The position numbers and the translations under genes were made by a program. A DNA stretch of 64,000 nucleotides from positions 61,256,001 to 61,320,000 of the forward strand of contig OX597826.1 of the NCBI GenBank assembly GCA_951406725.2, given 5' to 3'. A model generated the notes under the pieces. The model ran no database searches and was not told the DNA's origin. It worked only from the letters and a program-made list of their open reading frames with translations. Position 1 is the first letter of the stretch; every line of letters begins with the position of its first letter. Origin of the DNA: Octopus vulgaris (Eukaryota). This document shows, piece by piece, positions 19,001 to 25,000 of this stretch.

Positions 19001-22000
19001 AATACTAATAAAACTGACTATAAAACTGAGAGAGAGAGAGAGATTGAAAATTGCTTGGCACTATTTCTTTAAACTCATTATGTTCTGAGTGCAAATTCTA
19101 CAGAAGTTAACTTTACCTTTCCTCTTTGCGAGGTCAATAAAATAAAGTACCAGTTGAGCAGTGGGGTCAATTTAACAGACTAGGCCTGATACATTTTGGC
19201 ATCTGCCATTTAGCACCACTGATTTGATGCCGAGTTATTTGATATCCAGATGTTATGTTTTCATGTTTCCCTTGCTCTCTGTTTGTTTCTGGGCATATTT
19301 CTCTCTATGTGTCTGAGGAGAGGGAAAGTGTGTTCCTCAAATGTTTTCAATTAATAAATTGTAATGTCTCTCCCCCTCATGGTCTGCCTGTGTTTATTTT
19401 TGCAAGTGTCTGTGCCTGTGTTTGTCTCCAGCACCAAAATGTACTGTCGCCAAAACAGTCTGAATGTCCAGTTAACCATGCCAAATTGTCAGTCTCCAAA
19501 CTACTGCACCAAATCATTTTATTCCATAATTGACTGACTACTTGCCCTTAAATCCTTCTCACATCACCAATCTAACTATAACTGTAACTCTTATCTGATA
19601 GCTGAGGATTTATTCTGTAACTAAGCATTCATCAGGAAACTAGAATCGACCTCATGTCAACCAAGCAGACAGAAGCAAGTGCAGTTATGTATTTTTCCCA
19701 GCAGCACAAGAATGGATGCATTAGCAGCAGCAATATGTTTGAATTTCAGATACTTCAATACTAATCTGATACTTAAACCATGCAACCATTGGCTCCAACA
19801 CCACCAGTTTTTGAGGGGCAATTGTGCAAATTATACCCATAGACTTTTTTTTTTAAAGACACTTTAGGTAAATAATGTGGTTTTAGAATCACTGGCTGTG
19901 CAAAATTAAAAAATGGAAAAAAATTCAGTGGTGATCAAATGTCTCCTGAATCAGAGTTGACCAGGAGTTAATCAATCAATAAATCAATGCAAATACTCAC
20001 TGATCTTCTGTAGTGACAACAGCCTGCCCACTTGATCCACAGTCACTACTTGGTCCAGATATCCTAGCCCAAGCCACATACCATATATTAGCCTGGAGAG
20101 ATACTGGCTCATAAAATAACATTGCATAGGTTTCTCTGGAAAACAAACAAGAAATGGAATAAATTAATCTTCACAAAGGTAACAAAATTTGCTTAACATA
20201 TATCTATATCTACTGACCTGTCTCTCTGTCTAAGCATCTATCTAGCTACTCGCTTGCTGTGTGTGTGTGTATGTTTATTCATATATAAATATTCTTCATT
20301 CCTATAGTCCACATTATCAATAACAATATTTATCTCTCATTGGAGCCACCGTAATTTAACACCTTGGAAGAAAACAAAACGACTTACCTGGCAGCACATT
20401 CAAACGGAATTTCTTCAGTTTCTGCTAACAGAGTTCCATCTTCTTCCTTGTCAGCACCATCAAAGCCAAGTTCAAACAGCTGTATGAGACACACAGACAC
20501 ATAGATCAATGGTTCAAATAACAAACAGTCAGGACAGAAAATCGAATAACAAACAAGCAGGACAGAAAATCAAAGATTGAGAGATTTGGGTGGATGTCTG
20601 TGTGTGTGTACACAACTAAGACATAAATATGTAATTTAACTTGCATCAACCTTACACTCACATTCACGGGTTTATGTAATGAGTTTAGTCTTTGAGCTTC
20701 ATAGGCTCCTGACTACTCTCATTTTGTATTATGTATATATTTTTCTAATTTCATCACGTATAATCTTGCATACACCTCTTGTTTCTTTGATCAACTCTTA
20801 AATTTTCGAAATAGATTTTTCCTCACATGCAAACTTTGAGTGCATTCAATGAATCTTGTCCAATAAGAAATCATACATTTAAAACAACATGCCAACCAGT
20901 CAGTGCCACATGCCATCATCATCATCATTTAACGTCCGCTTTCTATGCTAGCATGGGTTGGACGGTTCAACTGGGGTCTGGGAAGCCCGAAGGCTGCACC
21001 AGGCCAGTCAGATCTGGCGGTGTTTCTACAGCTGGATGCCCTTCTTAACGCCAACCACTCCGTGAGTGTAGTGAGTGCTTTTTATGTGCCACCGACACAG
21101 GTGCCAGACGAGGCTGGTGAACGGCCACGCTCGGATGGTGCTTTTTACGTGCCACCGGCACGGAGGCCAGGCAAGGCTGGCAACGGCCACAATCGGATGG
21201 TCTTTGTTACGTATATATGTATGTGTGTATGTATGTATATGTATATATATATATGTATGTGTGTGTGTGTGTGTATATATATATATATATATACACACAT
21301 GTATGCATATAATCATGTTCCATGCTTGCATGGGTTGGACAAAAATGTTTTTCAGTGCCTACTGGAATCATAATCCAGACACACCATAAATTGTGCAGAC
21401 ATGCTAAACACTAAGGCAATTGTCATTTTATTCATTCTTTCATCCATTCATCCATCCATTCATGCATACATACATGTTTTGTGCGTGTGTGTGTAATTGC
21501 ACACACAATTACGGAGAAAGAGAGTGAGAAGATGGTAAAGTGTAATGCATAAATGAAAATCAGAAGAATTCCTTTTTTTCTTTGTTGCTGATTGCAGAAG
21601 AGATGGAAAAAGAAAGAAAAATGTTTCAGTTACAAGCATGTGAAGTAAGTATCTTTAATGACAGGACTGGCATCTGACTGTAAAGCAATGCTTTAGTAAT
21701 ATTTATTCGTCTGACCTTTACTACCACTGCAAAATAGACAATATAATGAACAAAATATCAGAATGAAAATTGTATTTTTACCATTCAGCTGGTCATTATA
21801 TTTCTTGACCATCCAACACTGACATCAACAGATCAGCTGTCCTCTATTATAATGACCATCACTACTGGCATTTCACGTTTACCAGGTCACTATGTAACTG
21901 ACCACTAATAACTGATATCTACTTATTGCTAATGTATATGTAATAAACCCTTAAAGAGAGAGCCCCAGGATGACCACAGTCCAATGACTGAAACAAGAAA

Positions 22001-25000
22001 AGGATAAAAGATAGATAGTCCCCTAAAACATTTAGTCATGGGACCCCTAGGCTAATCCCTGCTTTGATAGTGAAAGTGGGCTTAACTCTAGCATTTAATC
22101 CAGCCATTTCTGGTCCAGATATTCTCCTAGTTTTATGTTAAAACTGAGCAGATCCAATGTCTCACACCTACCCTACAAGGTCATTCTAAAAATAAACAAC
22201 CACATCATAGAAATTGTGAAGCTATGAGAAAATGCATGATTAATTCAAAACAATGTGAATAAATAAGGTTTACATTTGACAAAGAAATCTGAATGTTCAA
22301 GAGTTAAAGTTGTATTTGTGTGGCCATATCATACCATATCAGATATCAATATCAGATACCATAAGCATCTACATAAATCTTTGGCATTGCTAGCTTTCCA
22401 TACTATGTGATTTTGGCATTGCTGGCTTTCCGTACTATGTGATTTTGGCATTGCTGGCTTTCCGTACTATGTGATTTTGGCATTGCTGGCTTTCCGTACT
22501 ATGCGATTTTGGCATTGCTGGCTTTCCGTACTATGCGATTTTGGCATTGCTGGCTTTCCGTACTATGCGATTTTGGCATTGCTGGCTTTCCGTACTATGC
22601 GATTTTGGCCCCGACGGCTTTCCGTACTTTGCGATTTTGGCCCCGACGGCTTTCCGTACTTTGCGATTTTGGCCCCGACGGCTTTCCGTACTTTGCGATT
22701 TTGGCCCCGACGGCTTTCCGTACTTTGCGATTTTGGCCCCGACGGCTTTCCGTACTTTGCGATTTTGGCCCCGACGGCTTTCCGTACTTTGCGATTTTGG
22801 CCCCGACGGCTTTCCGTACTTTGCGATTTTGGCCCGACGGCTTTCCGTACTTTGCGATTTTGGCCCCGACGGCTTTCCGTACTTTGCGATTTTGGCCCCG
22901 ACGGCTTTCCGTACTTTGCGATTTTGGCCCCGACGGCTTTCCGTACTTTGCGATTTTGGCCCCGACGGCTTTCCGTACTTTGCGATTTTGGCCCCGACGG
23001 CTTTCCGTACTTTGCGATTTTGGCCCCGACGGCTTTCCGTACTTTGCGATTTTGGCCCCGGCGGCTTTCCGTACTTTGCGATTTTGGCCCCGACGGCTTT
23101 CCATACTTTGCGATTTTGGCCCCGACGGCTTTCCATACTTTGCGATTTTGGCCCCGACGGCTTTCCATACTTTGCGATTTTGGCACCGACGGCTTTCCAT
23201 ACTTTGCGATTTTGGCACCGACGGCTTTCCATACTTTGCGATATGGCACCGACGGCTTTCCATACTTTGCGATTTTGGCACCAATGGCTTTCCATACTTT
23301 GCGATTTTGGCACCAATGGCTTTCCATACTTTCTGTTAGTCTCATATTTGCAAACTTAAATATACATTAACTATATTAAGATATGATCTACTGGTGGTCA
23401 GTAATGTAGTGACTTTTTTTTAAAAAAGACTTATTTTAGCAGATGAACGTTTAAAGTCAAATTTCTTCTGTTTGTTCGCAGTATCTAATAAAAGTCAATG
23501 AAATCCGCACAAAGAAAGGAGTCGATCTACTACAACATCTAGTTGAATACTACCAAGCTCAAACCACGTAAGTCTCAATTTCATTTCCCATCACTTTGAT
23601 GGCATGTACTGCTCTCTCACTCAATAATAATTTTTTTTTTTCCTGATGTACTCCATCAATATAAACATTTTATCAATGAATAAAACTAAATAATTTTAAT
23701 TATAACTCCCACTCACACAACCACACACACACATTCATTCAAAGCTGAGTGTTCATTTGAACAAGTGCACATAACAGGAAACTCGGAGTAATGACAGTGT
23801 GAATGATCACTTCTAAGTGTATAAAATACATTCTACTACATGAATTAAGTACTCTTTCTAATGTTTGTACATCAATATACAGACAGATAGATAGAATCTT
23901 TATAACAAGTTTCCAAAAGTTAAAGATAGAAAAACAAGGGACTATATAATTTTTTTTCCCATACCACTCTGATGCTATGTATGAGCTAAATACAAGTGCC
24001 AAATTTTGTTTCAATCACGAAAAGTATGTTGCATCAGAGAATTTCTGTAATCTTTTACTAAAATCTAAATGTAAACCATTTCATTACAACATATCACATT
24101 AGGAGAAGAAGGAAAAAATTGGAATGAAGATTAAAACACTGTGTTTGCAACAAGAAATAACTAACTGCAGAGTGTAATTCTTTAACATTTGCATTTCTCT
24201 ACAAGTTTACCTACAATATAATCTTGGAGTAAGTACTTAACCTATTTATCACATAAAAGTTTACATAGCAAGAGAGATAGAGACAGCAAGAGCAAAGGAT
24301 AAAGACATATATAAAGATATACATATATATATATATATATATATATATGTGTGTGTGTGTGTGGAGAGAGAGAGAGAGAGAAGGGTAAATATTGTGCTAT
24401 GGAAACACATATATTAAGCAATAAGTAGAAAAGTTCAAAAATATATTACGCTAAATTCTTTCTTTAATCTGAAGATCTTAAATTACATATCCAACAAACA
24501 GTATTAACCAGAAATACAGAAGGCATTGATACAGGAGATAGAGAGTGAATATGCAGACTACTAAGAACTGTTTGTATGTAGCTAGGATTTTGGTAGCTTC
24601 TACGAGTTGGAATTAAGTGCACGCACTTAGAGATTGATGTTTTTAATCGCAAAAATAAAGCACCAAACACCAGATACTGTAAATAAAGATCTTGGAGGCA
24701 TTGTGCCATCACATTTCTAAAGGATTCAAGGTGGAACTGGTATCTGACATTTTAATACAACCATTTAAAGATGTTGTTCTTTGTTTTGCTCTGTGATTTT
24801 TTTTATTTTGTTTGTTTTTGATAGTTGTTCAAAACTGGAAATATCAAATGTTTGACATATTCTGTGATGTTGAATGGAAAATTCTACATTTTCTCAAGAT
24901 TCTTGCCTAGAATTAGCCTACATCCATTTAATGTTTCTCTAATATATTAGAAAAAAAGTCTTTTCCATTTGTCAAGAAGTACTAAATCAAAATGCACTCA

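Follow-up and report, generated by a model that had tools for sequence, protein, structure and literature searches.

Dispersed copies of intron-containing pieces of host genes, drawn from more than one locus, are known from Pack-MULEs and from Helitrons with captured fragments. Closer to the case treated here are the SVA 5'-transduction groups of hominids, among them SVA_F1 with exon 1 of MAST2, which are outlined in PMC12593883 as non-autonomous, mobilised in trans by a long interspersed nuclear element (LINE), and carrying host 5' sequence from upstream promoters; SVA_F1-type groups are described there as single-origin subfamilies with 5' truncation and an unstable internal tandem repeat. 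SVA source elements can be absent from the reference genome, as summarised in PMC9132208. The platypus snoRTE and PlatSINE1 elements, and bipartite derivatives of RTE, likewise have host sequence 5' of an RTE-derived 3' end and are mobilised by RTE, according to the outline in PMC7245038. Here we describe a family with likenesses to both in Octopus vulgaris, one copy of which lies in an intron of MYCBP2 and carries two exons of ASAP2 together with the intron between them. This copy was analysed in a stretch of 64,000 nucleotides (assembly GCA_951406725.2, contig OX597826.1, positions 61,256,001 to 61,320,000, forward strand), hereafter the window.

The copies descend from a single origin and share one end, a LINE-type tail, while their other ends vary. 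Somewhat better than evenly probable, in our estimate, is that an RTE-like LINE mobilised them in trans, with serial 5' transduction, from a master that was most likely an allele at C13:57.51 Mb absent from the assembly. No octopus or RTE-driven transduction group was found in the literature by title or abstract start, a weak negative as most subscription papers lie outside that coverage.

The insert in the MYCBP2 intron and its ASAP2 parent

The host intron (26328-20480, 5,849 bp) lies on the minus strand between two PHR-domain exons of MYCBP2. Foreign sequence of 4.6 kb occupies 20914-25510, with unique sequence outside both limits; a sequence-only reading of the window had confined the foreign piece to 21591-23630. 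The direction of the tail is sense to MYCBP2, and the features are as follows.

20388..20479, minus strand: next MYCBP2 exon downstream, by position and splice sites
20914..21212, minus strand: headless LINE-type 3' end with 63-bp repeats and a (GAT)n tail, the fixed end of the family; about 81% identical to LINE 3' ends
21212..21300, no strand: TA/TG microsatellite at the tail-ASAP2 junction, like an array at the same place in the parent intron
21218..23691, plus strand: ASAP2 segment, antisense to the tail and to MYCBP2; parent L035
21591..21644, plus strand: ASAP2 exon A, complete, 54 nt, encoding 18 protein letters
21886..23413, no strand: degenerate inverted-repeat-bounded stretch in the intron, 58-nt arms (21886-21943 and 23356-23413), 76% alike
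22393..23332, no strand: 32-bp minisatellite, 29.4 copies; array length and unit differ among family copies
23482..23567, plus strand: ASAP2 exon B, 86 nt, ending in phase 2, acceptor and donor intact, encoding 28 protein letters
23683..23691: 9-nt microhomology (8/9 alike) between the ASAP2 piece and the second piece
23683..25510, no strand: second carried piece, 98.7% identical to one other locus, C13:57511630-57513424
26329..26456, minus strand: MYCBP2 exon upstream of the host intron (PDB 3gbw, MYCBP2, E 1.9e-19; Pfam PHR)

The exon at 20388..20479 is presumably part of MYCBP2, an assignment that also leans on its likeness to PHR sequence.

The parent gene is intact on C4:161.33-161.42 Mb, where residues 66-888 of the Octopus sinensis ASAP2 protein (P0003; BAR, PH, ArfGAP, ankyrin and SH3 domains) align by tblastn along C4:161.327-161.417 Mb. 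An ArfGap scan gave a match 21 kb from one look-alike locus on C4, and the adjacent exons are present there in order. The stretch that corresponds to the window segment lies at about 4138-6521 of L035 (C4:161.356-161.358 Mb). Exons A and B together encode residues 184-230 of P0003 and are identical to the parent exons (54/54 and 86/86), while the intron between them measures 1,837 bp in the window copy versus 1,747 bp in the parent. Exon B on its own gave an E value of 0.0028 against positions 170-198 of Pfam BAR_3, below the curated cut-off, and a weak match (E 0.12) to the ASAP3 chain 9jih_A. Thus the sequence-only reading was right to see two consecutive ASAP BAR exons, in order and phase, separated by about 1.8 kb of intron and antisense within a MYCBP2 intron, and to propose a recent copy of a foreign gene segment whose parent lies elsewhere. 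Exon A does not lack an upstream half, as had been supposed, since 54 nt is the whole exon in the parent.

The natural acceptor of exon A (21589-21590) reads TG in the window copy alone; of the 21 further rows in the alignment, 19, parent included, read AG and two have deletions there. Use of a cryptic AG at 21596-21597 would alter the phase. Splicing of the window exons into an antisense transcript, which the earlier reading had considered, is made less likely by this loss. No other ASAP2 exon was found within 174 kb around the window (tblastn of P0003), which extends the earlier observation made for the 64 kb. Given the full parent on C4 and the lost acceptor, the window copy is not a working ASAP2 gene, and it was rejected as the true ASAP locus. 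Three further candidates for the parent were rejected: C11:21.54 Mb is a rearranged family copy, C13:57.51 Mb matches only the second carried piece, and an intronless BAR_3 frame on C7 encodes a BAR-PH-RhoGAP-like protein and not ASAP. The last (L048, C7:107.60 Mb) is open over 899 aa; a full match to BAR_3 precedes sequence that resembles PH and RhoGAP domains. It looks oligophrenin/GRAF-like and is possibly a retrogene.

Contigs assembled from other samples bear on the junctions. A contig of organism C spans 24391-25593 unbranched and crosses 25510 with 83 letters beyond, and contigs from organism A (two runs) and organism B (one run) agree with 25481-25771 at every letter, albeit reaching 30 letters into the insert, one fewer than our bridging rule asks; one of these A and B runs may be the assembly's own source. 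The insert at MYCBP2 is therefore present beyond this assembly, and its right junction at 25510 is no mis-assembly. Coverage was low for organism D, in which a 76-bp contig crosses the junction between the ASAP2 piece and the second piece and another leaves the window sequence at 25510. According to the contig table, the ASAP2 piece continues past 23691 in two runs of organism E, the second piece continues for about 280 unlike letters before 23683, and the two pieces are unjoined; most of 24345-25740 has no cover in this organism.

Copy number, shared tail and variable ends

Searches covered 2.8 Gb in 227 contigs. The exon A region was found at 22 loci on 9 contigs with 95-100% identity, namely the parent, the window and 20 more, four of which belong to one tandem array on C1, and further family members without exon A lie on C11, C24 (two), C1:33.92 Mb and C15. 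Both exons are kept in five non-parent copies (window, L018, L020, L022 and L031). In an alignment of 882 columns, from which microsatellite columns were excluded for difference counts and tree alike, 17 differences from the parent are common to all 21 non-parent copies, showing that these have a single origin; a single capture event, as first envisaged, does not describe a family of at least 21 copies. The copies differ by a median of 1.06% from their own majority and form a star-like tree in which 12 of 19 inner branches are open. On the scale outlined in PMC13282606, where a distance of 0.09 corresponds to 25 million years, the burst would date to roughly 3 million years ago, which is a rough figure.

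Nineteen of the 21 non-parent copies terminate in a common tail (window 20914), in CAT repeats; the shared end is lost in L022 and in one tandem copy. The perfect CAT/GAT run comprises 3 to 8 units in most copies. Over 300 bp the tail piece is 94-100% like that of the window in 16 of the 17 copies compared, versus 72-95% for 24 unrelated copies nearby, and this higher likeness indicates that the tail piece travels with the family. In contrast to the fixed tail, the other (right, 5') ends are spread over at least a dozen positions from 21798 to 25510. A (TA)4 motif adjoins 9 of the 17 tails counted and 7 of 13 5' ends, compared with 5.3% of random 30-mers, and flanks beyond the tail are not common to copies outside a tandem array on C1. 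The microsatellite at 21212..21300 is likely to be the original target site, as the parent intron has a similar array in the corresponding position. Next to this ASAP2-intron microsatellite there remain 43 bp of an older insertion of this LINE tail (window 21310-21345; parent L035 4227-4269), so that the site was hit at least twice.

The ASAP2 match stops at 23691, and the parent sequence past that point occurs only in the parent. The same junction with the second piece is crossed by L018, L022 and L031. At C13:57.51 Mb the second piece has neither ASAP2 nor the tail alongside, and on the argument of the breakpoint this locus may be its native place. It differs from that locus at 22 of 1728 positions, and 21 differences in 882 separate the ASAP2 piece from its parent (Fisher p 0.05); that the second piece is the closer to its own locus fits the order of capture proposed below. 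Sub-groups of copies have extra 5' flank in common and no 3' flank: up to about 3.4 kb in L017/L019/L025, about 300 bp in L023/L034 and about 80 bp in L043/L044. L017, L025 and L034, which we presume to be daughters, have a TA array on either side, whereas L019 and L023 run on into other sequence, for which reason the latter two probably represent secondary sources.

Some copies have changed since insertion. At C1:20.013-20.047 Mb (L027-L030) four or five family copies form a tandem array of units of about 7 kb, some with internal deletions, and this array multiplied at the DNA level after insertion. The 63-bp repeat that belongs to the LINE 3' end is expanded in L017, L019 and L025, where it takes up about 1.9 kb (about 2300-4200 in each), and L025 has a second such array. 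Among 16 copies, close sisters dropped, exon A shows 2 changes in 805 cells, compared with 3/802, 4/810 and 4/773 in neighbouring intron windows; as these are similar, no claim of selection on the copied exon A is made. The copies of exon B have missense changes and one deletion. The window copy looks like a neutral, decaying passenger.

The 32-bp minisatellite was rejected as the vehicle of the family: an exact 31-mer of a variant occurs 284 times in the genome, and 0 of 19 sampled loci have the ASAP2 piece. Short runs of a 32-bp-unit variant, often in both orientations and between long self-complementary A/T-run tracts, make up a dispersed satellite-like insert of about 1-8 kb (L172-L190), which also adjoins the family copies L021, L033, L036 and L038 and the C1 tandem array. 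In L179 about 60 bp of target recur beside it in inverted orientation, in L189 a direct repeat flanks it, and it looks like a product of snap-back or template-switch synthesis. At L176 and L177 (C2:24.45 and 24.50 Mb) the satellite insert plus both flanks are duplicated about 47 kb apart.

How the family may have spread

Target-primed reverse transcription leaves a fixed 3' tail and variable 5' truncation. Read on the minus strand, the copies have this pattern, and we take it as the signature of that process. A processed retrogene would look different, as here the intron is retained and ASAP2 is antisense to the tail; in the implied RNA, however, an antisense ASAP2 would leave the splice sites unused, which accounts for the kept intron. 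The sequence-only reading had favoured a capture at the DNA level, not by retroposition; with the segment antisense to a LINE-type tail that ends 19 of 21 copies, and an RNA copy expected to keep the intron, that preference is not supported and is most likely wrong. RNA-based readings taken together are, in our judgement, highly probable, and it is likely that the reverse transcriptase of an RTE-like LINE, acting in trans on read-through RNA, spread the family.

We infer an RNA step, promoters and master alleles now lost, arranged as follows. A headless LINE 3' end would have inserted in the TA microsatellite of the ASAP2 intron, antisense to the gene. An antisense transcript entering the tail would then have served as template for reverse transcription starting at the tail, and the product would have been a 5'-truncated copy that held two exons and the unspliced intron. 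This copy may have landed at C13:57.51 Mb, its 5' end being joined by microhomology, and read-through at that locus could have made it the master of the burst, of which the window copy, decaying and sense to MYCBP2, would be the longest daughter. At least two daughters would in turn have become new sources, passing on their own 5' flanks.

A candidate for the kind of partner involved was found through the window. A LINE-like frame there is followed by a stretch 81% like the tail, and this frame was used to locate LINE copies in the genome, two of which are near-intact:

L160, 1230-4382: single-frame LINE copy, 1,051 aa
L161, 1172-4384: single-frame LINE copy, 1,071 aa

Both have endonuclease and reverse transcriptase domains plus a PHD-like finger, RVT_1 and Exo_endo_phos being matched in the 1,071-aa frame of L161. 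The tail of the family is 81% identical over about 255 nt to the 3' ends of such full-length copies (6 of 6 long-frame copies fetched), which likewise end in (GAT)n and in 5 of 6 cases reach TA repeats within a few bases. The partner looks RTE-like, a label that we assume from the layout with a single open reading frame and from features of the tail. Identical C-terminal scores in many LINE copies suggest that the subfamily is young. The window itself has LINE remnants in MYCBP2 introns at 15975-17100 (minus strand), 47401-47660 (minus strand) and 53923-54306; in the first, the end of the frame immediately precedes the same 3' piece that tails the ASAP2 family. GC-rich 16-bp minisatellites also occur in MYCBP2 introns, at 17366-17763 and 55754-56383 (25 and 39 copies, 92-94% match). 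A search with Rfam over 20400-25900 for an RNA-gene head gave 9 matches, all of them microRNA models on microsatellites and below gathering scores; with no structural-RNA head, the family is not a short interspersed nuclear element.

Several observations weigh against serial transduction by such a LINE. Neither of the source alleles that it calls for, a tail in ASAP2 and an element at C13:57.51 Mb, is present in the assembly, and the tree, with its open inner branches, does not resolve a master copy. The second locus showed no gene or promoter: 0 of 150 open frames (of 165 picked, in 190 kb) match Pfam, and an exon scan found none. No target-site duplication in unique sequence was seen in any of the 13 copies with both ends defined, five of which lie between TA arrays that would hide it. 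The separate 32-bp/AT-rich satellite forms the end of some copies or has rearranged them, so that some right ends are no reverse-transcription stops. The intact LINE copies found are no closer than 81% to the tail, the exact partner presumably not being among them, and at 7-8 kb the presumed daughters are long for such a LINE.

In the main rival reading, the same retroposition started from the window copy itself, with MYCBP2 read-through in the sense direction of the tail as the supplier of RNA for all copies or some of them. MYCBP2, to which the insert is sense, offers the only known promoter for any copy; the insert is the longest of the main group, with every other core a sub-segment of it, it shares derived changes with L017/L019/L025 (21876, 22370 and a 7-nt deletion after the minisatellite), and the organism C contig runs through the second piece and out into the intron without a branch. 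We nevertheless regard this version as unlikely, since no copy passes 25510, although only three others pass 23691, and since a second piece native to MYCBP2 would require the match at C13:57.51 Mb to start by chance exactly at the ASAP2 junction. The two organism D contigs, one leaving at 25510 and the other crossing the ASAP2 junction, also speak against it, at their low coverage.

A chimeric master made by template switching between tail RNA, ASAP2 and the second locus in one reverse-transcription event would explain the microhomology at the internal junction and the lack of intermediate alleles in the assembly, and template switching is a proposed route to RTE-tailed chimeras in the outline of PMC7245038. 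It would, however, require an unspliced antisense ASAP2 template; the tail-ASAP2 junction, moreover, lies in a TA array, the apparent target of the partner LINE family, and later rounds visibly gained flanks by read-through. We consider it quite improbable.

Capture and spread at the DNA level, by a Helitron, a Pack-type element with terminal inverted repeats or replication-based duplication, is very improbable and largely refuted. The retained intron, the missing unique target-site duplication and the four C1 copies multiplied as a tandem DNA array would agree with it, as would the degenerate inverted repeat inside the intron. That 58-nt repeat flanks the minisatellite, and a dispersed repeat lies at about 22180-22310; the miniature inverted-repeat element noted earlier thus has partial support, but matching sequence is also present in the parent intron and internal to the moved piece. 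At the ends of the insert, no terminal inverted repeats were found among the 25 longest of 101 pairs, the sole non-microsatellite pair being internal. Helitrons begin with 5' TC, end in a 3' hairpin plus CTRR and insert between A and T; the fixed end here is neither a TC start nor a CTRR end, and of the 13 free ends a single one reads CTRR. Such capture would likewise not leave many free ends opposite one fixed end in a LINE tail whose length varies, nor flanks beyond the tail that are unshared outside the tandem array. Finally, the two alternatives named by the sequence-only reading, a genuine ASAP gene nested here with very long introns and a chimeric assembly, are already refuted and have next to no probability: exons identical to functional ones, exon B with both splice sites, would suit the former, but the full gene is on C4, tblastn found none of its other exons within 174 kb around the window and the exon A acceptor is lost, while the latter is countered by the organism C contig that bridges 25510 and by the three further runs that match there.

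Relation to known systems

If the RNA route is true, a kept intron is no proof of duplication at the DNA level, and the family provides a counter-example to that rule of thumb. It would also extend 5'-transduction groups, known from the L1-driven SVA, to a simple-repeat-tailed LINE in a mollusc. Exon cassettes with splice sites have been scattered in the process, both exons together in the five non-parent copies named above. In its widest form, which we hold to be doubtful, the proposal says that any headless LINE 3' end met by a passing transcript can serve as a handle for the RTE machinery, that intron-containing host DNA was so copied and snowballed over loci in at least three rounds, and that the MYCBP2 copy, under a neuronal promoter, is a live source. 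If true, the unique ASAP2 tag of that copy would let somatic jumps in the octopus brain be counted directly. More generally, a low-copy tag on a very abundant LINE tail offers a way to test ongoing germline and brain mobility, a question raised in PMC9115989. That source describes, in outline, RTE-2_OV as a brain-expressed RTE LINE of Octopus vulgaris with one frame of about 1,100 aa comprising endonuclease and reverse transcriptase. L160 and L161 are alike in layout, the comparison being one of layout only, and neither of two short L161 motifs occurs in the supplements of PMC9115989 outside files 5-8.

In common with SVA-type 5'-transduction groups, the octopus family has host-derived 5' sequence that can be traced to a source locus, and a single origin. 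It differs in its driver, which looks RTE-like with a (GAT)n tail whereas that of SVA is L1 with poly(A); in the gene piece, which is antisense, unspliced and made up of two internal exons whereas SVA_F1 has a spliced-in first exon; in that no target-site duplications were seen; and in its copy number of about 21-26. Unlike Pack-MULEs and Helitrons, it shows no terminal inverted repeats among the longest pairs and no Helitron ends, and its fixed end is a LINE tail. In comparison with the platypus snoRTE and PlatSINE1 elements, whose head is a short and uniform non-coding RNA, the 5' part of the octopus family consists of kilobases of intron and exon, is variable in length and appears to have grown by rounds.

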